Positions 1,393-21,466 of a DNA stretch of 21,466 nucleotides are shown piece by piece (the first letter of the stretch is position 1; every line of letters starts with the position of its first letter). The stretch covers positions 1 through 21,466 of the IMG/VR virus record IMGVR_UViG_2703718792_000016, one strand, 5' to 3'. The position numbers were made by a program, and so were the translations under genes. The notes under the pieces are model-generated. The model saw nothing but the letters and a program-made list of their open reading frames with translations, was not told the origin of the DNA and ran no database searches. This stretch comes from a virus (lineage: Duplodnaviria > Heunggongvirae > Uroviricota > Caudoviricetes).

Positions 1393-2031
1393 TTAAATAT
1401 CTTGTTGAATTTTAAAGCATACGCCCAATATGCAAGATAGATCATCCAGCATAATTGAAGGGTAGCGAGGATTCGTGGGGACTAAAAGAATATCCGGCCC
1501 TTCTATCTCCAGTTTACGAATGACAGGTGTTGTGGTCCCTTTGGGTAAGGCAAGGACAATATTTCCTGGTTGTACGGTTCGATCGGGATCAACAAAAACT
1601 GTTGAACCATTTGGAATGGAAACTCCCCCACCAGATGTTGACATACTGTCACTCTCTAGAACAACTGCAAAGGTATTGGCCGGGATTTCTCCGACAAGCT
1701 GCACACAAGAGGTTATTGAGGAATTTTTCATATAATCACTCCAGCTTGCTGCCTGCTGAAGTGATAGTAGCGGAACCGTTTTTATCGGCGGTAAAGATAG
1801 ATCAAGCGAATCACCTGTATTTAACTCTCCTCCATTAAGAAGCCAATTTTCGTTTACTTTCAATATCTTTGCCAGTGAACTTATGTAACGCGAGGACGGC
1901 GCTCCTCCACCGTTCATCCATTGACTTACGGAGCCTTTTGATGCGCCAGTGGCATTGACAAGGTCTTTGCCTTTCAGGTTTAGCGCATGCATACGTTGGG
2001 TTATGCGTTCAGATATTGTTTGCTTGCTCAT
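1393..2031 (-). CDS. cI: CI-like prophage repressor (N-terminal HTH, C-terminal S24 LexA-like autopeptidase domain)
   Basis: 212 aa; N-terminal HTH-like segment (...GASKGSVSQWMNGG...), C-terminal SDSM motif and downstream Lys typical of the S24 Ser-Lys dyad; divergent from a cro-like gene. Confidence 0.85.
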   Translation of the reverse strand: MSKQTISERITQRMHALNLKGKDLVNATGASKGSVSQWMNGGGAPSSRYISSLAKILKVNENWLLNGGELNTGDSLDLSLPPIKTVPLLSLQQAASWSDYMKNSSITSCVQLVGEIPANTFAVVLESDSMSTSGGGVSIPNGSTVFVDPDRTVQPGNIVLALPKGTTTPVIRKLEIEGPDILLVPTNPRYPSIMLDDLSCILGVCFKIQQDI

Positions 2032-2122
2032 GTTTTGATTTTAAAACACAGATGGTTTTGTTTCTTGACTTTCTTTGGTTTTGATTATTAAACTTTTGGC
2101 GTTCAGTTTTATGGAGCGACTC
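2032..2122. promoter_or_regulatory. candidate right operator/promoter region (OR with divergent pRM/pR-like promoters)
   Basis: 91-bp gap between divergent repressor and cro-like genes; inverted repeat AAAAC-N7-GTTTT (2043-2059), a second GTTTT..AAAC element (2078-2093), TTGACT -35-like hexamer at 2065-2070. Confidence 0.5.
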
Positions 2123-2353
2123 ATGAAAAAATCAGAAGTATTAGGCTATTTTGGCGGAGTTGTTAAAACAGCCGCAGCTCTAGGAACGTCAAAAACCACA
2201 GTCAGCATGTGGGGGGAAGAGGTTCCGTGGAAATGGGCGTTGCTAATTCAGGCAGTCACTGCCGGGGCGCTCAAATATGAGTTACACATACCGACGGTTG
2301 TCATTCCCGGTTCTGATCATAATCCGCCTTCTAACCAAGGGGGGGATTCATGA
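2123..2353 (+). CDS. cro: Cro-like / YdaS-like small HTH regulator
   Basis: 76 aa from the ATG at 2123 (GGAG 6 nt upstream); divergent from repressor; stop overlaps the next start (ATGA). The track ORF start at 2075 is probably an over-extension. Confidence 0.7.
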   Translation: MKKSEVLGYFGGVVKTAAALGTSKTTVSMWGEEVPWKWALLIQAVTAGALKYELHIPTVVIPGSDHNPPSNQGGDS

Positions 2354-2775: not shown

Positions 2776-2846
2776 CTGACAATAGCCATATCGAATCGCT
2801 TCCGGCAACTCGTGAGTAAAAAGATTCGGTATCAGAAGAGGTGAGT

Positions 2847-3917
2847 ATGGCTAACGCCTGGCTCAGATTATGGCATGACATGCCAAATGACCCTAAGTGG
2901 CGAACAATTGCCAGGGTGTCAGGGCAGCCAATTGCAACAGTGATGGCAGTGTATATCCACCTCCTGGTGAGTGCGTCACGAAATGTCACGCGAGGTCACA
3001 TTGATGTCACGACAGAAGATTTGGCAAGTGCGCTCGACGTGACAGAAGAGGTAATTGATTCAATTTTGCAGACGATGCAGGGGCGGGTACTTGATGGTGA
3101 TTTAATCACTGGATGGGAAAAACGCCAGGTGCTTAAAGAGGACAACGGCAATATTTCGCAAACCGCAAAATCTCCTGCAGAGCGCAAGAGGGCGCAGCGA
3201 GAGAGGGAAAGAAAGCGGGAACAAAATGGCGATTGTCACGGCGCGTCACGAAATGTCACGCACATGTCACGACGAGTCACGACAGATAAAGATACAGATA
3301 AAGATACAGATCAAGAAGATCAAAACACTATGGTCCATGGCGTAAAAAACGCCACGAACCAGGCAGGGGATGTTCAGACCGTCAATCCTGGTCAGCCAGC
3401 AGGCACGACACCGGAAGCCGATTCAGCGTATGCGCTGAAAGCCGATTCGGGCGCTGTGCAGCAGGCGATGACCGCAGGGTCGGAGCAATCACACCAACTG
3501 CAGCAGCCTGAAGCCGATTCCGCCATTCAGCGGGAAGCCGATCGGGTAGTCCCGAAAAACACCGGGCAGCCTGTGGGACGAGTGGATTATCCGGATGTGT
3601 TCGAACAGATCTGGCGGGAGTACCCGTTGCGTGCCGGGGCAAACCCGAAGAAATCCGCTTTCAGTGCCTGGAAGGCCAGATTACGCGAGGGGGTGCCACC
3701 AGAGGCCATGCTGGATGGCGTGAGGCGTTACGCAAGATACCTAGCGGTTACCGGGAAAACGGGAACGGAATTTGTTCAGCGGGCGACGACGTTTTTTGGA
3801 CCGGACCGGAATTTTGAAAACCCCTGGTTGCTCCCGGTAAGCGGCACGAACAACCAGCGTTGTGTGAATCATATTTCTGAACCGGATACCGAAATTCCGC
3901 CGGGCTTCAGGGGGTAA
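2847..3917 (+). CDS. replication initiation / replisome organiser protein (lambda O-like role) carrying its own iterons
   Basis: 356 aa from the ATG at 2847 (GAGGTGA upstream); low-complexity acidic/Q-A-P-rich linker; two clusters of phased GTCACG repeats inside the coding sequence, as the lambda ori lies inside O. Confidence 0.7.
   Translation: MANAWLRLWHDMPNDPKWRTIARVSGQPIATVMAVYIHLLVSASRNVTRGHIDVTTEDLASALDVTEEVIDSILQTMQGRVLDGDLITGWEKRQVLKEDNGNISQTAKSPAERKRAQRERERKREQNGDCHGASRNVTHMSRRVTTDKDTDKDTDQEDQNTMVHGVKNATNQAGDVQTVNPGQPAGTTPEADSAYALKADSGAVQQAMTAGSEQSHQLQQPEADSAIQREADRVVPKNTGQPVGRVDYPDVFEQIWREYPLRAGANPKKSAFSAWKARLREGVPPEAMLDGVRRYARYLAVTGKTGTEFVQRATTFFGPDRNFENPWLLPVSGTNNQRCVNHISEPDTEIPPGFRG
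2974..3011. repeat. iteron cluster 1: four GTCAC(G/A) copies at 10-11 bp phasing
   Basis: Copies start at 2975, 2985, 2995 and 3006; the 17-mer CGTCACGAAATGTCACG (2974-2990) is repeated exactly at 3244-3260. Confidence 0.55.
3235..3330. repeat. iteron cluster 2 (five GTCACG copies at 10-11 bp phasing) plus adjacent A/T-rich tandem repeat; candidate origin of replication
   Basis: GTCACG at 3235, 3245, 3255, 3266, 3276, followed by ACAGATAAAGAT tandem copies and an A-rich stretch (3282-3330); same architecture as lambda ori (iterons then AT-rich). Confidence 0.55.
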
Positions 3918-3957
3918 GTGTTTATTTCAGCTCATGAGGTAATTATCAGGAGGAGTT

Positions 3958-4383
3958 GTGGCAAAAGTTTTTACACAAGAAGAGCGGGAAAAAATTAAAG
4001 GGCAGGTTGTTGAACTTGTACGCCAGAGTGGGCGCGAGACGTTACGGCAACTGGAAGCCAAGACAGGTGCGACAAGATATCTGATGAGTGTTCTCGCCAG
4101 AGAGCTGGTTGCCAGTGGCGGTGTATACAATTCTGGCTACGGGTTATTCCCGTCTGAACAGGCTCGTAAAGACTGGCAAAACGCCCGCAAAAAATTATCG
4201 AGGGCAAAGCTGAAGAAACCGGTTGTGGTTGATCCTGACCTTATATGGTCATTACCAGATGGAGAAATACGTCGCTACGACAGGCACCTGAATATAATCT
4301 GTCGCGAGTGCCGGGAGAGCGAAGTTATGCAGCGCATACTGGCATTTTATCAAGGAAATGTTAGGTATTTTAGACGTTACTAG
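3958..4383 (+). CDS. hypothetical protein (141 aa), GTG start, immediately after the replication gene
   Basis: ORF with AGGAGG Shine-Dalgarno directly upstream of the GTG; basic, Cys-containing C-terminus; no family recognised. Confidence 0.55.
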   Translation: MAKVFTQEEREKIKGQVVELVRQSGRETLRQLEAKTGATRYLMSVLARELVASGGVYNSGYGLFPSEQARKDWQNARKKLSRAKLKKPVVVDPDLIWSLPDGEIRRYDRHLNIICRECRESEVMQRILAFYQGNVRYFRRY

Positions 4384-4611
4384 ATTAAAGAGCATTAGTT
4401 CAGATGTGAATTGACATTTTCATGGCGCAGGGTAGAGCTAGCGTGGTAGTTTTCTTTGTGCCAGAAACGGCATTTGCAAATATGGCCATGCGCTGTCACT
4501 TAGAGAGGAGCACAGGATTTACCTGTGCTCAAGTTCAATAGTAAAGATGAAAATATTATGAAGATGGTGGGGGAAATGTAACTGCAGTGATACTTTGTGC
4601 AAAAGTAGTAA

Positions 4612-5118
4612 TTATTTCTTTGCAGCCAGAATCAGGCCGTCAAGCCACTCCTGGTGACCATTGAGCATTGGGTTCGGACGAGTATTTGCCAGGTCTTTTG
4701 CTGGAACTCCGTTCTGCGTTTCCTGTGTCAGGATACGGAGTCTGTTACCCGAGAGTTCCTCCAGTAGCCACGCATGATGAACATCTAGGCGTTGTACAGT
4801 ATCTTTTTCACCGGACCATCCGTGCCATGCCAAACGAGCAGGTTTACCTTCAGTAGGTGGAATAAATTCCACGACCTGAGCTTCAACCGGAAATCCAAAT
4901 GTGCTGAAGTAAAAGCGCACGCCATTTTCCAGCTCCGGACCTTTATTGTTATAAAAGCGCACATCTGCTGAATTTTTATAGTATTCCGGCCATAGTAATG
5001 GCTGACTAAGGAGTGGCCAAACATCATTGATGTTCAGACCGGAGATGATCATTTCATTAGACACAAAGTTATCAGTAAATCCCGGAACAAAGCCTTCTGG
5101 CCAGTGAATAGCGTTCAT
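4612..5118 (-). CDS. SRPBCC (Bet v1-like / polyketide cyclase-like) superfamily protein, cargo gene
   Basis: 168 aa from the ATG at 5118 (GGAGG upstream); the track ORF start at 5130 is a TTG extension. Superfamily call from overall sequence character, not a search. Confidence 0.6.
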   Translation of the reverse strand: MNAIHWPEGFVPGFTDNFVSNEMIISGLNINDVWPLLSQPLLWPEYYKNSADVRFYNNKGPELENGVRFYFSTFGFPVEAQVVEFIPPTEGKPARLAWHGWSGEKDTVQRLDVHHAWLLEELSGNRLRILTQETQNGVPAKDLANTRPNPMLNGHQEWLDGLILAAKK

Positions 5119-5253
5119 AAATGCCTCCAATTGCGGTAGTTAATTGTACTGGGTTTGCTGCGTTACGACCGCAACACGATGGCAGTGATTATTAGCGCAA
5201 TGAAGTTATAAGGCGAATTATGATTACTTATAATCTTAATAAGATAAATTATA

Positions 5254-6162
5254 TCAGGAGCCAGTATCTTGGCTAACTTCTACGCATAAAGCCCGAATCC
5301 ACTGATGGCTAGGGTCACGATGAGTTCGTTCATGCCAGGCCATACTCTTGGTAAAGCCCGGAACTTTCAGGGGCAAAGGGAGTATGATTAGATCGTTGTT
5401 AGTCAGGACCATGCGGTGGGGGACAACAGCGATCATATCAGTCACTTGCAATATATCAGGAACTACTTGAAAACTATTAACTGACATGCCTACTCGTCGT
5501 GTCAGACTGAGCTTAGCCAGTGCTTCATCTGTAACACCGGAGAAGCTACCTTCTGAAGACACCAGAATATGTTCCTGTTTGCAAAATTGTTCGAGAGTCA
5601 TTTCTGAATTCGCTGACAACGGATGATTCCGTCGTGCTATGCAAACATAATCTTCTTCATAAAGTGCTCTGCCGTGCAGCTCTCCGGGAGTGGTTTGTGG
5701 TGTTACCAAAGCCAGATCAACTTCTCCCTGAGATAACTGCTGATATATTCGTTTATTGTCTACAGGCCGCACAGAGATTTTAATATTCGGTGCTCGATGT
5801 TTCAGCGCAGCCATCAATGGGACAACAACAGCCTTAACTGCATAGTCCGTTGCGACAATGGTATAAGTTAGTTCTGCCGTCATGGGGTCAAATTTACTTG
5901 GTTTCAGCAGAATCGTGATATCGGTGAGAATTTGTTTTACCGGCATAGCAAGTTCTTTAGCACGGAGTGTGGGAACCATACCGTGACTGGTGCGAACAAA
6001 GAGAGGATCGCAAAAATAATCACGTAATCGAATAAGCATGCCACTGACAGCGGGCTGCGTCAGGGAAAGTCGCTGCGCAGCCCGAGTCACGCTTCCCTCA
6101 TCCATTAACGCATCAAAGGTCTTAAGTAAGTTAAGGTCGAGGGTTTTGATATCATTTTTCAT
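5254..6162 (-). CDS. LysR-family transcriptional regulator
   Basis: 302 aa; N-terminal HTH signature (...LNLLKTFDALMDEGSVTRAAQRLSLTQPAVSGMLIRLRD...) and a C-terminal substrate-binding-type domain of typical length. Confidence 0.9.
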   Translation of the reverse strand: MKNDIKTLDLNLLKTFDALMDEGSVTRAAQRLSLTQPAVSGMLIRLRDYFCDPLFVRTSHGMVPTLRAKELAMPVKQILTDITILLKPSKFDPMTAELTYTIVATDYAVKAVVVPLMAALKHRAPNIKISVRPVDNKRIYQQLSQGEVDLALVTPQTTPGELHGRALYEEDYVCIARRNHPLSANSEMTLEQFCKQEHILVSSEGSFSGVTDEALAKLSLTRRVGMSVNSFQVVPDILQVTDMIAVVPHRMVLTNNDLIILPLPLKVPGFTKSMAWHERTHRDPSHQWIRALCVEVSQDTGS

Positions 6163-6493
6163 AATGAGGTCACCTGACAGATATAAAAATGTTGATTGAG
6201 GCTAATTGCCCCGATGAAGGTTGTCGAGGGGAACCAGGAGTTTTTTCTTTTGGGTGATTTCCATTGCTGGATAGTTCCCTTGTACAGATAAGTCCGTTCT
6301 TCGCACAAAGCGGACTGGAAGGTTAGCTTGAGTCGGACTTTGCGTATTAAAAGAAGTGCTGGTGGTGACTGGTTCTTTAGCCCCATTTCCCCAGAAAAAA
6401 TCAGAGAAACTATACCCAATAGTTGTATTGATTCACTGACGAGACGGCCTCATATTGATAGGGACTAGTGTGCATCCAATACAGGAGGTTGTT

Positions 6494-6583
6494 GTGCTGG
6501 TTCTCAAATGTGCGCTGGCTATTGCGGCTGTAATGGCAATTTATTGTCTTGCTGTTGTTCTTATGGATCGCCTTTCTGATTGA
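6494..6583 (+). CDS. small hydrophobic peptide (29 aa, VLVLKCALAIAAVMAIYCLAVVLMDRLSD), possible membrane peptide or type I toxin-like
   Basis: Not in the ORF track; GTG start with AGGAGG 6 nt upstream; one predicted transmembrane helix with a charged C-terminus; divergent from the LysR gene. Confidence 0.35.
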   Translation: MLVLKCALAIAAVMAIYCLAVVLMDRLSD

Positions 6584-6737
6584 TTTCATATTGGCGAGGT
6601 AACGGTAGTTAAGTAGAATTGCTGCGGGTGCTTGAGGCTATCTGCCTCGGGCATGAACACCAACGGCAGATAGAGAAAAGCCCCAGTTAACATTACGCGT
6701 CCTGCAAGACGTTTAACATTAATCTGAGGCCATATCT

Positions 6738-6797
6738 ATGCGACACATAGAGATTAGCCTCTTACGGACCGAAAGGTCAAGGAGAAGCAGGCTATGA
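6738..6797 (+). CDS. mok-like leader ORF overlapping the hok start
   Basis: 19-codon ORF whose stop overlaps the hok ATG (ATGA), the kind of coupling seen in hok/mok loci. Speculative. Confidence 0.25.
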   Translation: MRHIEISLLRTERSRRSRL

Positions 6798-6949
6798 AGC
6801 AGCAAAAGGCGATGTTAATCGCCCTGATCGTCATCTGTTTAACCGTCATAGTGACGGCACTGGTAACGAGGAAAGACCTCTGCGAGGTACGAATCCGAAC
6901 CGGCCAGACGGAGGTCGCTGTCTTCACAGCTTACGAACCTGAGGAGTAA
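6794..6949 (+). CDS. hokD: Hok/Gef-family type I toxin (HokD/RelF-like)
   Basis: 51 aa MKQQKAMLIALIVICLTVIVTALVTRKDLCEVRIRTGQTEVAVFTAYEPEE; aligns with R1 Hok ([20 protein letters not shown]) and matches my recollection of E. coli RelF/HokD; GGAG Shine-Dalgarno upstream. Confidence 0.85.
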   Translation: MKQQKAMLIALIVICLTVIVTALVTRKDLCEVRIRTGQTEVAVFTAYEPEE

Positions 6950-8452: not shown

Positions 8453-8818
8453 ATGACTGAGCGCATAGAATTTGTTTTGCCTTACCCGCCGTCGGTGAAC
8501 ACCTACTGGCGCCGTCGTGGTGGCGTATATTTTGTATCAAAAGCCGGTGAGCGTTATCGCCGGGATGTGGCGCTTATTGTTCGCCAGCAGCGACTGAAAT
8601 TAAATCTGTCCGGTAGATTGGCAATCAGGATTATTGCAGAGCCACCGGATAAGCGCCGCCGCGACCTGGACAATATCCTGAAGGCACCACTGGATGCACT
8701 GACACATGCAGGACTGCTTATCGACGATGAGCAGTTTGATGAAATCAATATTGTGCGCGGTCAGCTCGTTCCTGGTGGGCGGCTGGGGATAAAAATCACA
8801 GAACTGGAGTGCGCATGA
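8453..8818 (+). CDS. rusA: RusA-family Holliday junction resolvase
   Basis: 121 aa with the RusA core ...PDKRRRDLDNILKAPLDALTHAGLLIDDEQ...; start directly follows the upstream stop. Confidence 0.9.
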   Translation: MTERIEFVLPYPPSVNTYWRRRGGVYFVSKAGERYRRDVALIVRQQRLKLNLSGRLAIRIIAEPPDKRRRDLDNILKAPLDALTHAGLLIDDEQFDEINIVRGQLVPGGRLGIKITELECA

Positions 8819-9504
8819 ATAACCAGTATTTACAGTTTGTGCGTGAGCAGCTCATTATCGCCACCGCTGATTTGAGTGGGGCAACAAAAGGTCAGCTTGA
8901 AGCCTGGCAGGAGAATGCCATGTTCGATACAGGGCGTTACAGGCGAAAAAAAATCCGGTACCGCGATGAAGTGACTGGAAAAATGATAACGCGGAATAAT
9001 CAACCAATCCCGGGAAAGCAATCGCTGGCGAAGGGGACGTCAATTCCTCTGGTCAGTCCGGTTGAGTTTTCGACATCATCGTGGCGGCGGGCTGTTCTGT
9101 CTCTTGAAGAACATCATAAAGCCTGGTTGTTGTGGTGTTACAGCGGGAGTATTTGTTGGGAATATCAGATCGCGATAACACAGTGGGCGTGGAATGAATT
9201 TAATACTCAATCCGGTACCAGAAAAATTGCAGGGAAAACGCAGGAACGCCTGAAAAAATTAATCTGGCTGACGGCGCAGGCAGTAAAAGCAGAACTTTTG
9301 GGTGGGGAAGGTTATGAATACCAGGATCTGGCATTACTGGCGGGAGTGACAACTAAAAACTGGTCCAAAACATTTACTCGTCACTGGGTTGCAATGAAAC
9401 ACATTTTTCACCGACTGGATAGTGAGGCTTTATTGTTTGTAATGAGAACACGTTCAAAACAAAAGGCGGCATTTTCAAAGCAAAGTGTTGCAAAAGTAGA
9501 TTGA
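8815..9504 (+). CDS. putative late-gene antiterminator (Q-like)
   Basis: 229 aa; ATG overlaps the rusA stop; located after the nin-like genes and before a promoter/terminator module, tRNAs and the lysis cassette. Assignment rests on position, not recognised motifs. Confidence 0.55.
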   Translation: MNNQYLQFVREQLIIATADLSGATKGQLEAWQENAMFDTGRYRRKKIRYRDEVTGKMITRNNQPIPGKQSLAKGTSIPLVSPVEFSTSSWRRAVLSLEEHHKAWLLWCYSGSICWEYQIAITQWAWNEFNTQSGTRKIAGKTQERLKKLIWLTAQAVKAELLGGEGYEYQDLALLAGVTTKNWSKTFTRHWVAMKHIFHRLDSEALLFVMRTRSKQKAAFSKQSVAKVD

Positions 9505-9713: not shown

Positions 9714-9789
9714 GGCCCTTTAGCTCAGTGGTGAGAGCGAGCGACTCATAATCGCCAGGTCGCTGGTTCAAATCCAGCAAGGGCCACCA
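9714..9789 (+). tRNA. tRNA with CAT anticodon, most similar to tRNA-Ile2 (lysidine, ileX/ileZ-like); Met not excluded
   Basis: 76 nt; cloverleaf with 7-bp acceptor stem GGCCCTT/AAGGGCC, anticodon loop CTCATAA, T-loop TTCAAAT, CCA encoded; close to my recollection of E. coli ileX. Confidence 0.85.
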
Positions 9790-9790
9790 A

Positions 9791-9867
9791 CCGCCACTAG
9801 CTCATCAGGAAAGAGCGTCAACCCTTTAAGTTGAGTGTGCGAGGTTCGAGTCCCCGGTGGCGGTCCA
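9791..9867 (+). tRNA. tRNA-like gene with non-canonical anticodon loop CCTTTAA (formal anticodon TTT, Lys); isotype uncertain
   Basis: 77 nt; acceptor stem CCGCCAC/GTGGCGG, T-loop TTCGAGT, CCA encoded, but C at position 33 and an A-C mismatch in the T-stem. Confidence 0.55.
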
Positions 9868-9869
9868 GT

Positions 9870-9945
<76 letters not shown>

Positions 9946-9948
9946 TAT

Positions 9949-10023
<75 letters not shown>

Positions 10024-10186: not shown

Positions 10187-10750
10187 TTAGTTTTTATTCG
10201 CCGTCCATTTACCACAAATTGGTCTGGAGAAGATTGCCAGAATGGCAATAAAGGATATTTCAATTGAAACAGACCAGCATATATGTCCAATCAGTTCGCT
10301 CCAGAATTCATAGCCGTTTAGATTCCATAGCCATCCTCTTTCATGGCCGGGAAGATACGCGGGAAATCTGAAGCCCAGCGCGGGTATTAAAATACCATGC
10401 ATGACTAATGTAATAAGAATTCCATATACAGCCCCATACCACATGCGGACTCGTGGAATAAAAACAGACAGGTATATGTATACAAAGGCAAAAATGAAAC
10501 TAAAAAGCCAATGGTAGAGCATAACAGCTCCGGGAATTGTTACTCCTTGGTAAATGTAATCCAGCGAGTGTGAATTTATTCCCAGAAAACCCAACCAGGC
10601 GTCGATATTCATTGCTGGTGGAGAAATTTCTCCGGCCATTCTTGGGGGCATGTTAGCTTCAGTTCCTGATTTCACCAGAGAGCTGATCGCGCCACCGACC
10701 AGTGTTGCCCAAAGTATGATTTTTAGATTTACGCTATTCCATTTACACAT
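10187..10750 (-). CDS. DUF1440-family inner membrane protein (YagU-like), moron between tRNAs and lysis genes
   Basis: 187 aa from the ATG at 10750 (GAGG upstream); several hydrophobic helices; C-terminal ...SELIGHICWSVSIEI... resembles the YagU signature. The 93-codon upstream extension in the track ORF is low-complexity and probably untranslated. Confidence 0.7.
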   Translation of the reverse strand: MCKWNSVNLKIILWATLVGGAISSLVKSGTEANMPPRMAGEISPPAMNIDAWLGFLGINSHSLDYIYQGVTIPGAVMLYHWLFSFIFAFVYIYLSVFIPRVRMWYGAVYGILITLVMHGILIPALGFRFPAYLPGHERGWLWNLNGYEFWSELIGHICWSVSIEISFIAILAIFSRPICGKWTANKN

Positions 10751-11681: not shown

Positions 11682-12178
11682 TGTCGCCATCATTACGCAA
11701 GGCTATTGCTGCTGCTATTGGTGGTGGGGCTGTTGCCATAGCGTCTGTGCTCATCACTGGTCCGAGTGGTGACGATGGCCTGGAAGGTGTCAGCTACATA
11801 CCATACAAAGATATCGTTGGCGTATGGACTGTATGTCACGGACACACCGGAAAAGACATCATGCTCGGTAAAACGTATACCGAAGCAGAATGCAAAGCCC
11901 TCCTGAATAAAGACCTTGCCACGGTCGCCAGACAAATTAACCCGTACATAAAAGTCGATATACCGGAAACAACGCGCGGCGCTCTTTACTCGTTCGTTTA
12001 CAACGTGGGCGCTGGCAATTTCAGAACATCGACGCTTCTTCGCAAAATAAACCAGGGCGATATCAAAGGCGCATGTGATCAGCTACGGCGCTGGACATAC
12101 GCTGGCGGTAAGCAATGGAAAGGGCTGATGACTCGCCGTGAGATTGAGCGTGAAGTCTGTTTGTGGGGGCAGAAATGA
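11681..12178 (+). CDS. R: SAR endolysin (R21-type lysozyme with N-terminal signal-arrest-release domain)
   Basis: 165 aa; Gly/Ala-rich weakly hydrophobic N-terminus ([20 protein letters not shown]) followed by a LEG...YxD...T lysozyme catalytic region; start overlaps the holin stop. Confidence 0.85.
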
Positions 12179-12642
12179 GCAGAGTAACCGCGATTATCTC
12201 CGCTCTGGTTATCTGCATCATCGTCTGCCTGTCATGGACTGTTAATCATTACCGTGATAACGCCATCGCCTACAAAGAACAGCGTGATAAAAAAGTCAGT
12301 GAGCTGGAGCAGGCGATCGCCACCATCGCTGACATGCAGCAGCGTCAGCGTGATGTTGCTGTGCTCGATGCAAAGTACTCGAGAGAATTAGCCAATGCGA
12401 AAGCTGAAAATGAAACTCTGCGCGCTGATGTTGCCGCTGGTCGTAAGCGCCTGCGGGTCAATGCCAGTTGCTCCGCAGCCGTGCGTGAAGCCACCGGACC
12501 CACCCGCGTGGATAATGCAACCAGCCCCCGACTGGCAGACACCGCTGAACGGGATTATTTCACCCTCAGAGAACGGCTGATGACAATGCAAAAGCAACTG
12601 GAAGGGGCACAGGAATATATCCGTACCCAGTGTATACCGTGA
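12175..12642 (+). CDS. Rz: Rz-like i-spanin (inner membrane spanin subunit)
   Basis: 155 aa from the ATG at 12175 overlapping the endolysin stop; N-terminal transmembrane helix then coiled-coil-like sequence; contains the embedded Rz1 frame. Confidence 0.8.
12395..12580 (+). CDS. Rz1: Rz1-like o-spanin lipoprotein embedded in the +1 frame of Rz
   Basis: 61 aa with signal peptide and lipobox (LVVSAC) followed by a Pro-rich mature region, entirely inside Rz. Confidence 0.65.
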
Positions 12643-13107
12643 TGTTTTGTTATAAAGGTGTTGATGGTTGTGTTAGGGGGGATTTAACAAAAAGCCAGTT
12701 CTGGACTTTATAGTGTGCTCAGATCATGGCCAAAAACGATTTCTGTGATAAATATTTTGAATATTATTTACAGGTAAATGACGTGGGTCGCATGAATGAA
12801 AATATTACAATAGAGTATTAAGTATATGCTCATATTGTATGGGCTGAGAAGGCAAAACACGGTAATTCCTTATGTTGCTGTGATACCTGATTGGCAGAAT
12901 AGTTATTTGGTCTTGAGTATATAGTCAGCGTTTTTTGTTCAGTAATAGATCTTTCAGTTAAAAACAATAAATAGCGTGATTATTTCTGTTTGTTATTTGT
13001 ATTTTTGTTTGTTGTTTTATTGTCTTTCTGTGGAGGGGGGAGTATTGTTCCCTTATTAAGGGCAGGTAAATTTAGAATGGTAATCTGTAGATAATTGGAG
13101 GTCACTT

Positions 13108-13422
13108 ATGCTACATGATCACCAGGCTGAATGTCTGGAGAAAAAAGGACTGTACCGGAGAGCGGCTGCACGATGGGCAAAAGTGATGGTACAGCTAAGT
13201 GATGATCAGAAAAGAAAAATCGCGGCACAGAAACGAGCAGAGTGTTTGCGTAAGGCGCGCCGGACTTCGGTTGCACCGGTGAATCTGACAGAAATAAAGC
13301 AAGCGGTCAACAGACTACATTCTGAGTTGGGAATGGGATTTGAAGAGCGGCGGATATTCCGACGATATAAAGGGACAGGAGAACAGAATACGTCCGGAAA
13401 CGCGCGCTCAAAAAAATGCTAA
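13108..13422 (+). CDS. PerC-family transcriptional regulator (Pch-like), moron between lysis genes and cos
   Basis: 104 aa; N-terminal ...LEKKGLYRRAAARWAKVM... matches the PerC/Pch signature as I recall it; preceded by about 460 bp of A/T-rich non-coding DNA and followed by a terminator. Confidence 0.6.
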   Translation: MLHDHQAECLEKKGLYRRAAARWAKVMVQLSDDQKRKIAAQKRAECLRKARRTSVAPVNLTEIKQAVNRLHSELGMGFEERRIFRRYKGTGEQNTSGNARSKKC

Positions 13423-13463
13423 AAAATATTTGAGAAAGTTATTGCCTGTTACCATAAGAAAAA

Positions 13464-13485
13464 GCGACTTTAGTAGTCGCTTTTT
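13464..13485 (+). terminator. intrinsic terminator after the PerC-like gene (A-run before and T-run after, possibly bidirectional)
   Basis: GCGACT / AGTCGC stem with TTAGT loop, then TTTTT; preceded by AAAAA. Confidence 0.6.
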
Positions 13486-13590
13486 GTGTCATATATAAGT
13501 CGTTTAAGTAAACCTGTCCGAACAGGTGCTCTGGTCGTGTTTGTTTTTGTTGGGTACAAATTGAGAATGTTTTTCATTAATTAGTCTTCT

Positions 13591-13728
13591 TCAGCAGACT
13601 TCAATAATCCACGCTGAAAAAATTCCTGAACCTTTCTGACCAAAAGCGATGTTAATTTGTTCAATAATCTGGTTTGGAAATCGGATGTTGAGGGCTGTTG
13701 TTCTGCGGGTTCTGTTCTTTGATGACAT
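13591..13728 (-). CDS. small ORF (45 aa, MSSKNRTRRTTALNIRFPNQIIEQINIAFGQKGSGIFSAWIIEVC), possible ribbon-helix-helix-like protein
   Basis: Not in the ORF track; found by manual translation; basic N-terminus and an ALNIRFP strand-like segment; weak Shine-Dalgarno. Confidence 0.3.
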   Translation of the reverse strand: MSSKNRTRRTTALNIRFPNQIIEQINIAFGQKGSGIFSAWIIEVC

Positions 13729-13930
13729 AATGTTGCCCCATATTCAGTGTTGCTGGTTTGTATTTTCTGAAATTGCTTTTACGTTAATTTAATGTGGATC
13801 AATTGATGCAATGCCTGCGTCATAATTGATCATTTCTTGTGGTTAGATTGCGCACACACACGTTCAGATGAGTCATCATGAAGATGATAACTATTCTCAT
13901 TTTTGTGGGTCCTTTCCGGCGATCTGACAG

Positions 13931-14105
13931 GCTACGGGGCGGAAGGCGCGCGGGTTTTCGCTATTTATGAAAATTTTCCGGTTTAAGGCGTTTCCGTTCT
14001 TCTTCGCCGTAACTTCATGTTTTTATTTAAAACACCCCCTGAAAAGAAAGGAAACGACAGATGCTGAAAACGGGCTTTTTGGCCTTTGTCGTTTCCTTTC
14101 TCTGT
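13931..14105. other. cos site: cosN (about 13937-13948) and cosB with R3/R2/R1-like repeats upstream of Nu1
   Basis: Sequence from about 13949 onward (CGCGGGTTTTCGCTATTTATGAAAATTTTCCGGTTTAAGGCGTTTCCGTTC...) matches the lambda left end as I recall it; GGAAACGACAG / CTGTCGTTTCC inverted elements at 14047-14060 and 14086-14100. Confidence 0.7.
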
Positions 14106-14125
14106 TTTTGTCCGTGGAATGAACA

Positions 14126-14645
14126 ATGGAAGTCAACAAAAAGCAGCTGGCTGACATTTTCGGTGCGAGTATCCGTACCATTCAGAACTGGCAGGAGCAG
14201 GGAATGCCCGTTCTGCGAGGCGGTGGGAAGGGTAATGAGGTGCTTTATGACTCTGCCGCCGTCATAAAATGGTATGCCGAAAGGGATGCTGAAATTGAGA
14301 ACGAAAAGCTGCGCCGGGAAGTTGAAGAACTGCGGCAGGCCAGCGAGGCAGATCTCCAGCCAGGGACTATTGAGTACGAACGCCATCGACTTACGCGTGC
14401 GCAGGCCGACGCACAGGAGCTGAAGAATGCCAGAGACTCCGCTGAAGTGGTGGAAACCGCATTCTGTACTTTCGTGCTGTCGCGGATCGCAGGTGAAATT
14501 GCCAGTATTCTCGACGGGATCCCCCTGTCGGTGCAGCGGCGTTTTCCGGAACTGGAAAACCGACATGTTGATTTCCTGAAACGGGATATCATCAAAGCCA
14601 TGAACAAAGCAGCCGCGCTGGATGAACTGATACCGGGGTTGCTGA

Positions 14646-14671
<26 letters not shown>
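14126..14671 (+). CDS. nu1: terminase small subunit Nu1
   Basis: 181 aa MEVNKKQLADIFGASIRTIQNWQEQGMPVLRGGGKGNEVLYDSAAVIKWY..., matching lambda gpNu1 from memory; 26-nt overlap with the next gene as in lambda. Confidence 0.95.
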
Positions 14672-18249
<3,578 letters not shown>

Positions 18250-18352
18250 GTCCGTGAAACGATGGAGCGCCGCGCGGCTGGTCTTAAACCGCCCGCCTGG
18301 GCGGCTGCGGCATTTGAATCCGGGCTGCGACAATCAACAGAGGAGGAGAAGA

Positions 18353-19672
18353 GTGACAGCAGAGCTGCGTAATCTCCCGCATATTGCCAGTATGGCCTTT
18401 AATGAGCCGCTGATGCTTGAACCCGCCTATGCGCGGGTTTTCTTTTGTGCGCTTGCAGGCCAGCTTGGGATCAGCCGCCTGACGGATGCGGTATCCGGCG
18501 ACAGCCTGACTGCCGGAGAGGCACCCGCGGCGCTGGCGTTATCCGGTGATGATGACGGACCACGACAGGCCCGCAGTTATCAGGTCATGAACGGCATCGC
18601 CGTGCTGCCGGTGTCCGGCACGCTGGTCAGTCGGACGCGGGCGCTGCAGCCGTATTCGGGGATGACCGGTTACAACGGCATTATCGCCCGTCTGCAACAG
18701 GCTGCCAGCGACCCGATGGTGGACGGCATTCTGCTCGATATGGATACGCCAGGCGGGATGGTGGCAGGGGCATTTGACTGCGCTGACATCATCGCCCGTG
18801 TGCGTGACATAAAGCCGGTATGGGCGCTGGCCAACGACATGAACTGCAGTGCAGGTCAGTTGCTTGCCAGCGCCGCCTCCCGGCGTCTGGTCACGCAGAC
18901 CGCCCGGACAGGCTCCATCGGCGTCATGATGGCTCACAGTAATTACGGTGCTGCGCTGGAGAAACAGGGCGTGGAAATCACGCTGATTTACAGCGGCAGC
19001 CATAAGGTGGATGGCAACCCCTACAGCCATCTACCGGATGATGTCCGGGAAACACTGCAGTCCCGGATGGATGCAACCCGCCGGATGTTTGCACAGAAGG
19101 TGTCGGCATATACCGGCCTGTCCGTGCAGGCTGTGCTGGATACCGAGGCTGCAGTGTACAGCGGTCAGGAGGCCATTGATGCCGGACTGGCTGATGAACT
19201 TGTTAACAGTACCGATGCGATCACCGTCATGCGTGATGCACTGGATGCACGTAAATCCCGTCTCTCAGGAGGGCGAATGACCAAAGAGACTCAATCAACA
19301 ACTGTTTCAGCCACTGCTTCGCAGGCTGACGTTACTGGCGTGGTGCAAGCGACGGAGGGCGAGCACGCCAGCGCTGCGCAGCCGGACGTGAACGCGCAGA
19401 TCACCGCAGCGGTTGCGGCAGAAAACAGTCGCATTATGGGGATCCTCAACTGTGAGGAGGCTCACGGACGCGAAGAACAGGCACGCGTGCTGGCCGAAAC
19501 CCCCGGTATGACCGTGGAAACGGCCCGCCGCATTCTGGCAGCTGCACCACAGAGTGCACAGGCGCGCAGTGACACTGCGCTGGATCGTCTGATGCAGGGG
19601 GCACCGGCACCGCTGGCTGCAGGTAACCCGGCATCTGATGCCGTTAACGATTTGCTGAACACACCAGTGTAA
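18353..19672 (+). CDS. C: prohead protease / scaffold protein C
   Basis: 439 aa from the GTG at 18353 (VTAELRNLPHIASMAFNEPLMLEPAYARVFF...); same coordinates relative to B as in lambda. The track ORF start at 18206 is an upstream over-extension. Confidence 0.9.
   Translation: MTAELRNLPHIASMAFNEPLMLEPAYARVFFCALAGQLGISRLTDAVSGDSLTAGEAPAALALSGDDDGPRQARSYQVMNGIAVLPVSGTLVSRTRALQPYSGMTGYNGIIARLQQAASDPMVDGILLDMDTPGGMVAGAFDCADIIARVRDIKPVWALANDMNCSAGQLLASAASRRLVTQTARTGSIGVMMAHSNYGAALEKQGVEITLIYSGSHKVDGNPYSHLPDDVRETLQSRMDATRRMFAQKVSAYTGLSVQAVLDTEAAVYSGQEAIDAGLADELVNSTDAITVMRDALDARKSRLSGGRMTKETQSTTVSATASQADVTGVVQATEGEHASAAQPDVNAQITAAVAAENSRIMGILNCEEAHGREEQARVLAETPGMTVETARRILAAAPQSAQARSDTALDRLMQGAPAPLAAGNPASDAVNDLLNTPV
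19067..19672 (+). CDS. nu3: scaffolding protein Nu3 (in-frame internal start within C)
   Basis: ATG at 19067 in the C frame gives a 201-aa product sharing the C stop; position corresponds to lambda Nu3. Confidence 0.65.
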   Translation: MDATRRMFAQKVSAYTGLSVQAVLDTEAAVYSGQEAIDAGLADELVNSTDAITVMRDALDARKSRLSGGRMTKETQSTTVSATASQADVTGVVQATEGEHASAAQPDVNAQITAAVAAENSRIMGILNCEEAHGREEQARVLAETPGMTVETARRILAAAPQSAQARSDTALDRLMQGAPAPLAAGNPASDAVNDLLNTPV

Positions 19673-19681
19673 GGGATGTTT

Positions 19682-20014
19682 ATGACGAGCAAAGAAACCT
19701 TTACCCATTACCAGCCGCTGGGCAACAGTGACCCGGCACATACGGCAACCGCGCCCGGCGGATTGAGTGCGAAAGCGCCTGCAATGACCCCGCTGATGCT
19801 GGATACCTCCACCCGTAAGCTGGTTGCGTGGGATGGCACCACCGACGGTGCTGCCGTTGGCATTCTGGCGGTTGATGCTGACCAGACCAGCACCACGCTG
19901 ACGTTCTACAAGTCCGGCACGTTCCGTTATGAGGATGTGCTCTGGCCGGGGGCTGCCAGCGACGAGACGAAAAAACGGACCGCGTTTGCCGGAACGGCAA
20001 TCAGCATCGTTTAA
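19682..20014 (+). CDS. D: head decoration protein D
   Basis: 110 aa [43 protein letters not shown]...; the track start at 19676 adds two codons not present in lambda. Confidence 0.9.
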
Positions 20015-20069
20015 CTTTACCCTTCATCACTAAAGGCTGCCTGTGCGGCTTTTTTTACGGGATTTTTTT

Positions 20070-21095
20070 ATGTCGATGTACACAACCGCCCAGCTGCTGG
20101 CGGCAAATGAGCAGAAATTTAAGTTTGATCCGCTGTTTCTGCGTCTCTTTTTCCGTGAGAGCTATCCCTTCACTACGGAGAAAGTCTATCTCTCACAAAT
20201 TCCGGGACTGGTAAACATGGCGCTGTACGTTTCGCCGATTGTTTCCGGTGAGGTTATCCGTTCCCGTGGCGGCTCCACCTCTGAATTTACGCCGGGATAT
20301 GTCAAACCCAAGCATGAAGTGAATCCGCAGATGACCCTGCGTCGCCTGCCGGATGAAGATCCGCAGAGTCTGGCGGACCCGGCTTACCGCCGCCGTCGCA
20401 TCATCATGCAGAACATGCGTGACGAAGAGCTGGCCATTGCTCAGGTCGAAGAGATGCAGGCAGTTTCTGCCGTGCTTAAGGGCAAATACACCATGACCGG
20501 TGAAGCCTTCGATCCGGTTGAGGTGGATATGGGCCGCAGTGCGGCGAACAATATCACGCAGTCCGGCGGCACGGAGTGGAGCAAGCGTGACAAGTCCACG
20601 TATGACCCGACCGACGATATCGAAGCCTACGCGCTGAACGCCAGCGGCGTGGTGAATATCATCGTGTTTGACCCGAAAGGCTGGGCGCTGTTCCGTTCCT
20701 TCAAAGCCGTCAGGGAGAAGCTGGATACCCGTCGCGGCTCTCATTCCGAGCTGGAGACAGCGGTAAAAGACCTGGGCGAAGCGGTGTCCTATAAGGGGAT
20801 GTATGGCGATACGGCGATCGTCGTGTATTCCGGACAGTACGTGGAAAACGACGTCAAAAAGAACTTCCTGCCGGACAACACGATGGTGCTGGGGAACACT
20901 CAGGCACGCGGTCTGCGCACCTATGGCTGCATTCAGGATGCGGACGCACAGCGCGAAGGTATTAACGCCTCTGCCCGCTACCCGAAAAACTGGGTGACCA
21001 CCGGCGATCCGGCGCGTGAGTTCACCATGATTCAGTCAGCACCGCTGATGCTGCTGGCTGACCCTGATGCGTTCGTGTCCGTACAACTGGCGTAA
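20070..21095 (+). CDS. E: major capsid protein E
   Basis: 341 aa from MSMYTTAQLLAANEQKFKFDPLFLRLFF...; the track ORF start at 20043 is an over-extension. Confidence 0.95.
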   Translation: MSMYTTAQLLAANEQKFKFDPLFLRLFFRESYPFTTEKVYLSQIPGLVNMALYVSPIVSGEVIRSRGGSTSEFTPGYVKPKHEVNPQMTLRRLPDEDPQSLADPAYRRRRIIMQNMRDEELAIAQVEEMQAVSAVLKGKYTMTGEAFDPVEVDMGRSAANNITQSGGTEWSKRDKSTYDPTDDIEAYALNASGVVNIIVFDPKGWALFRSFKAVREKLDTRRGSHSELETAVKDLGEAVSYKGMYGDTAIVVYSGQYVENDVKKNFLPDNTMVLGNTQARGLRTYGCIQDADAQREGINASARYPKNWVTTGDPAREFTMIQSAPLMLLADPDAFVSVQLA

Positions 21096-21136
21096 TCATG
21101 GCCCTTCGGGGCCATTTTCTCTCTGTGGAGGAGTCC

Positions 21137-21466
21137 ATGACGAAAGATGAACTGATTGCCCGTCTTCAGGTGCTGGGTGAGCAACTGAACCGTGATGTCA
21201 GCCTGACGGGGACGAAAGAAGAACTGGCACTCCGTGTGGCAGAGCTGGAAGAGGAGCTTGATGACACGGATGACGCTGCTGGTCAGGACACATCTGTCAG
21301 CCCGGAAAATGCGCTGACCGGACATGAAAATGAGGTTGTATCAGCGCAGCCGGATACCGTGACTGATACGGCTGATCTGGTCACGGTTGTGGCACTGGTG
21401 ACGCTGCATACTGATGCACTTCACGCCACGCGGGATGAGGCTGTGGCATTTGTGCTGCCGGGAACG
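21137..21466 (+). CDS. FI: DNA packaging protein FI (3' end cut by the window edge)
   Basis: MTKDELIARLQVLGEQLNRDVSLTGTKEELALRVAELEEELDD...; ORF runs off the end of the window. Confidence 0.85.
   Translation, partial: MTKDELIARLQVLGEQLNRDVSLTGTKEELALRVAELEEELDDTDDAAGQDTSVSPENALTGHENEVVSAQPDTVTDTADLVTVVALVTLHTDALHATRDEAVAFVLPGT

Follow-up and report, generated by a model that had tools for sequence, protein, structure and literature searches.

A natural lambdoid prophage with a premature amber codon in its lambda-type portal gene B

The portal protein of phage lambda, gpB, is a member of the lambda family of portals (PF05136; PDB 8K38/8K39 and related entries) and is encoded in a head gene cluster of the order Nu1-A-W-B-C-D-E, in which the 3' end of B overlaps the start of C. 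The published structure of the lambda virion contains a gpB model that lacks only the final 20 residues and assigns residues 453-511 to the crown domain (PMC10721106), and a review describes the crown as contacting the packaged DNA (PMC7617512). Our literature search retrieved no direct test of the gpB C-terminus. In the Staphylococcus aureus phage 80alpha, a portal deleted for residues 488-511, the last 24 residues of the crown, still assembles and packages DNA, but the phage forms no plaques and its ejection protein is not incorporated (PMC12889711). Classical lambda B amber mutants (Bam), associated with supE hosts and exemplified by the lysogen C600 supE (lambda Bam1) (PMC4669245), would be conditional-lethal by host suppression; the map positions of these ambers were not found in the literature search. 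Defective portal genes have also been reported for prophages in the Sp pool of Escherichia coli O157 Sakai, where several lambdoid elements were scored in this way, and the defective prophages of this strain can still undergo induction, packaging and transfer and are sometimes rescued by co-resident prophages (PMC2669165).

The DNA analyzed here (referred to as the window) comprises the 21,466 nucleotides of the IMG/VR record IMGVR_UViG_2703718792_000016, assigned to the Caudoviricetes. It represents a lambdoid prophage in which genes for an S24 repressor, a P22-Cro-like protein, YdaT, replication proteins, a DUF968 protein, RusA and Q are followed by a tRNA array, a YagU/DUF1440 gene, a lysis cassette, PerC and then the Nu1-A-W-B-C-D-E cluster. 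All seven head genes match their lambda counterparts over the full length and in the same order, and the 3' end of B overlaps the start of C as it does in lambda. Unlike in lambda, however, codon 493 of B is TAG instead of CAG, the predicted product has 492 rather than 533 residues, and the early region is of non-lambda type. The features relevant to this difference are the following:

9714-10023, plus strand: array of four tRNA genes located 3' of Q (8809-9504), predicted by ARAGORN, with the anticodons CAT, TTT (Lys), TGT (Thr) and TCC (Gly)
14126-16774, plus strand: Nu1, A and W, encoding the terminase subunits and the head-tail adaptor, intact and upstream of B, with full-length lambda matches at 99-100% identity
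16771-18249, plus strand: truncated portal gene B, 492 codons and a TAG stop, identified from the list of open reading frames, its translation, Pfam and its identity to lambda B
18247-18249, plus strand: early amber stop, TAG in place of CAG (Gln493), created by the T at 18247
18250-18372, plus strand: untranslated remnant of B with codons 494-533 and the original TAA (18370-18372), delimited by translation and by comparison with lambda and strain MEI003
18353-19672, plus strand: gene C, S49 prohead protease/scaffold, intact, with a full-length match to lambda C (439 aa) and the Pfam domain Peptidase_S49
19676-21095, plus strand: open reading frames holding D (19682-20011) and E (20070-21092), both intact, with full-length matches to lambda D and E

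The product of B matches Phage_portal_2 (PF05136) over residues 32-400 (E 5e-96; 322 bits against a cut-off of 32.9), and the gene is colinear with lambda B (J02459, positions 2836-4437), from which it differs by 25 substitutions in 1,602 nt. Over all 533 codons, this corresponds to an identity of 98.4% at the nucleotide and 98.7% at the amino acid level. A base-by-base comparison shows that the CAG of lambda at codon 493 has become TAG through a single C-to-T change at position 18247. Translation of the ancestral frame (16771-18372) past this codon yields 40 more open codons before the TAA, and these specify the tail of lambda gpB with zero amino acid changes, the 4 nucleotide differences from lambda being all synonymous. 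Since such an exact lambda tail in the post-stop frame goes beyond what chance would produce, the amber codon truncates the B gene rather than marking the boundary of an open reading frame. B thus has the hallmarks of a pseudogene, namely an in-frame early stop relative to its intact orthologs and homology that runs on past this stop. By descent, it is a member of the lambda portal family, but its product is incomplete and lacks the full wing/stem/clip/crown architecture, because residues 493-511 of the crown (453-511) and the tail are removed. A preliminary description of this DNA, made from its letters and open reading frames, had already placed the amber at codon 493 and counted 41 lost residues and 40 further codons up to the TAA, and these counts are right. 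It had also stated that lambda carries CAG at this codon, which J02459 confirms, so that a stop in the lambda reference itself can be dismissed; similarly, its proposal of a single C-to-T change, which supE would read as Gln, is borne out by the alignment to lambda B. The ancestral context of the mutated base, judged by eye, is AGCAGG and not CCWGG, and a Dcm hotspot was therefore rejected as the origin of the transition. An in-frame ATG (18262-18264, plus strand), corresponding to Met498 of gpB, lies 13 nt past the amber codon and has no obvious Shine-Dalgarno sequence. Reinitiation at this site would yield a 36-residue peptide containing the conserved motif GLKPPAW.

Given that the crown spans residues 453-511 and the last residues of gpB were left unmodelled, truncation at codon 493 costs the protein about 19 ordered residues of the crown together with a flexible tail of 22 residues. 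The conservation of these two parts was determined in an alignment of lambda gpB with 23 full-length homologs, which reach down to 60% identity and come from Escherichia, Salmonella, Klebsiella, Serratia, Enterobacter, Citrobacter and other sources. All of these homologs (518-536 residues) retain the 493-511 segment, and Q492, Q493, E496, R500, G504, L505, P508 and W510 are invariant in all 24 aligned portals. The mean column identity reaches 0.735 at positions 493-511, compared with 0.73 for the whole protein and 0.417 at positions 512-533, suggesting that the lost ordered part is under as strong a selection as the rest of the portal. The strong conservation of this segment, together with the published structure, suggests that the truncation has most likely abolished or severely reduced portal function. 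An AlphaFold2 model of the full-length portal, built from an alignment of 23 sequences, had a mean pLDDT of only 39.6 and was left unused as too poor. The 90% cluster that contains this portal also includes short lambda-type entries, which were considered as natural C-terminal truncations; the two that were checked (507 and 496 aa) run off the ends of their contigs and are partial sequences rather than true truncations. Protein length alone overstates the number of portal pseudogenes, as many short entries in public clusters (496 aa, 507 aa and others) are artefactual.

The amber allele recurs in independent assemblies. The exact 492-residue product is contained in the contig VKJB01000074.1 of assembly GCA_009910095.1 (16 kb; 2 samples listed) and in the Logan assembly of SRR22324918 (8.4 kb; 5 samples), each 100% identical to the window, and in both the NCBI and the Logan contigs gene C and later genes continue 3' of the 492-residue reading frame. 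Its distribution was assessed with a 31-nt query centered on the mutated T, such that every 28-nt seed word necessarily includes this base. The TAG version had 0 matches in 5,426 complete E. coli genomes and 0 matches in 50,697 phage records; the corresponding CAG control was found at 4,413 places in 3,108 of the same 5,426 E. coli genomes. Likewise, an exact 23-mer with the TAG was absent from collections of viral sequences, species-representative genomes and metagenome contigs. A 71-nt BLAST search returned no 100% match either, a result that on its own does not distinguish a mismatch at the TAG from mismatches in the flanks. The amber allele is thus private to one small clone and, as far as the searched collections show, undescribed. 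The nearest B allele in a complete genome, that of strain MEI003, is intact (533 codons) and differs from the window at 2 nt, one of which is the amber, with zero differences downstream of it. This close relationship, the lack of any change past the stop and the full length of the other genes lead us to judge the mutation recent.

The other genes of the prophage appear undamaged. Those in the window are open reading frames that align over their full length to relatives, and the contig of the same clone, which is 100% identical to positions 12142-21466 of the window, extends this picture from Nu1 to the tail gene L, with genes of lambda-like length that align over their full length to those of MEI003. 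The amber in B is therefore the sole lesion among the genes seen, from the immunity region to the tail gene L. In this respect, the prophage resembles the Sp prophages of O157 Sakai, which are also lambdoid elements with an inactivated morphogenesis gene, but it differs from them in having one visible lesion in a remainder that is seen intact, so that decay would be at its very start rather than affecting multiple genes. It likewise shares with the classical Bam mutants an amber codon in gene B, which would be expected to act as conditional-lethal on suppressor and non-suppressor hosts. Unlike these, however, it represents a wild, non-lambda haplotype in natural isolates, and the likeness concerns the gene and the type of codon.

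The most probable explanation for these findings is that the B allele arose by a recent spontaneous C-to-T mutation to amber in the prophage of a natural E. coli clone, that portal function has most likely been lost or crippled, and that the prophage is in an early state of decay. A transition at position 18247 would have turned Gln493 (CAG) of the resident B gene into a stop, and in a non-suppressing host translation would end at residue 492, giving a portal whose crown lacks its conserved end. Such a prophage could still induce, replicate and lyse its host cell but, unaided, would release few or no infectious particles. For C, D, E and the tail genes, expression should stay close to normal. 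Gene C starts with a GTG at 18353 within the B remnant, preceded by a GGAGG motif 6 nt upstream, and the late transcription of lambdoid phages is Q-antiterminated; owing to its own Shine-Dalgarno sequence and this antitermination, polarity from the amber codon onto the downstream head genes would not be expected. The amber in B would then represent the first visible step of prophage decay. Several factors could soften these consequences. The truncated protein (gpB 1-492) may, by analogy with the 80alpha portal, keep partial activity, and natural low-level readthrough of the UAG could allow some particles to form. As many as six lambda-type portal genes occur in a single E. coli genome, which makes complementation by, or recombination with, a co-resident lambdoid prophage plausible, a process that would alter the consequence of the allele but not its nature.

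The preliminary description had listed four outcomes, namely a defective portal, tolerance of the truncation, dependence on a host amber suppressor and descent from a laboratory amber allele. The first is best supported, given that ordered, invariant crown residues are lost and that the allele is missing from the 4,413 other copies. It is unlikely, if conceivable, that gpB 1-492 still functions as a portal and leaves the prophage viable, if perhaps less fit. The last 22 residues of gpB are poorly conserved (mean column identity 0.42), the last 20 are unmodelled in the virion structure, and the remainder of the prophage is intact, all of which would be in line with a dispensable C-terminus. The 80alpha portal lacking residues 488-511, which still assembles and packages DNA (PMC12889711), further illustrates that truncation does not necessarily abolish portal function. 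The present allele resembles this deletion in that a siphophage portal is missing the C-terminal helices of its crown, but the two portals are unrelated in sequence, and the 80alpha deletion was engineered and its phenotype measured, whereas the lambda-type truncation is known from sequence. To our knowledge, lambda has no counterpart of the 80alpha ejection protein in that role. Tolerance is less easily reconciled with the nature of residues 493-511, an ordered crown segment with seven invariant positions, Q493 included. Moreover, among the matches listed, no homolog truly ends early, the entries of 496 and 507 residues being contig-end partials, and the amber allele is absent from all phage records as well as from the other E. 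coli copies. The 80alpha truncation itself abolished plaque formation (PMC12889711). A tolerated truncation is less likely than a defective portal. Still less probable is the broader notion that the amber is being kept instead of decaying, either because the clone contains a natural suppressor or because gpB 1-492 works, perhaps together with a peptide reinitiated at Met498. If gpB 1-492 did work, the conserved end of the lambda crown would be dispensable for assembly and packaging; if the clone did carry a natural amber suppressor, the element would be a wild conditional prophage.

Restoration of full-length gpB by a host suppressor, such as a glnV/supE-type tRNA-Gln with a CUA anticodon, is a remote prospect. 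It has the attraction that supE inserts Gln at amber codons and would recreate the ancestral residue 493 exactly, and Marshall and Levy, writing in Nature in 1980, reportedly found amber suppressors in some natural coliforms. However, wild E. coli rarely carry suppressor alleles, and nothing in the data points to one; our literature search yielded nothing usable on the prevalence of natural amber suppressors. None of the four tRNAs predicted by ARAGORN in the window has a CTA anticodon, in agreement with the preliminary description, and another gene of the same prophage (3958-4383) ends at a TAG (4381-4383) as its ordinary stop. A sequencing or assembly error with a true C at 18247 would account for a single-base difference from the nearest intact allele, but it is very improbable: the same product with identical flanks was recovered from an NCBI assembly and from separate Logan assemblies (2 and 5 samples listed), all of which show a T at the position where a resequenced C would have overturned the finding, and the change is a substitution, not a homopolymer indel. 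It is hardly credible, finally, that the codon derives from a laboratory lambda B amber allele or serves programmed UAG readthrough or recoding. Many classical ambers fall at Gln codons, as this one does, and some other phages recode TAG to Gln. The laboratory origin is contradicted by the 25 differences from lambda B, by a wild haplotype only 2 nt away from MEI003 and by the non-lambda immunity and replication region. Against recoding, the genes seen contain only one in-frame TAG, with all other reading frames open, and there is no CTA tRNA in the window. In addition, folding of the RNA 3' of the stop in comparison with shuffled sequences revealed no readthrough-stimulating element downstream of the TAG (z +0.92, no more structured than the shuffles). 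The unstructured RNA after the stop, together with the TAG that ends another gene of the prophage, thus gives no sign of programmed readthrough or recoding.

Recent mutational loss of the portal, the reading that we favor, is an ordinary event, as nonsense-inactivated morphogenesis genes are a well-known kind of prophage lesion, and it involves no new mechanism. For annotation, it means that B should be recorded as a portal pseudogene interrupted by an internal stop, and that the entry for the prophage should note a probable inability to produce infectious particles on its own. In this allele, the decay of a prophage is seen at its onset. Beyond this, its value is modest: since a single codon separates the prophage from an intact state and MEI003 carries a nearly identical intact relative, it offers a natural, otherwise isogenic single-codon test of the need for the conserved end of the lambda portal crown.

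The early and accessory regions of the window display several additional features. The immunity region (1393-2353) is mosaic. Its S24/HTH repressor gene (1393-2031, minus strand) and the Cro-like gene within the open reading frame at 2075-2353 (plus strand) encode products with only 31% and 38% identity, respectively, to those of the otherwise closest prophage, whereas the flanking genes are 92-98% identical. A segment at about 4400-6900 is lacking in the prophage that is otherwise most similar and looks like inserted cargo that separates the replication genes from the hokD/DUF968 region; it contains a gene for a LysR-family regulator (5254-6162, minus strand) and an open reading frame (4612-5130, minus strand) with no Pfam match. 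The tRNA array is also found in related prophages, and its CAT tRNA, called Met by ARAGORN, has a homolog in NZ_CP039404 that is annotated as tRNA-Ile by PGAP. Between this array and the lysis cassette, in a moron position, lies a YagU/DUF1440-family gene (10190-10750, minus strand; the mechanically defined open reading frame reaches 11029), whose protein is 100% identical to the copy in strain 377323_2f. A PerC-family transcriptional activator (13108-13422, plus strand; Pfam E 7e-42) is encoded between the lysis cassette and Nu1 and is present in a related prophage as well.
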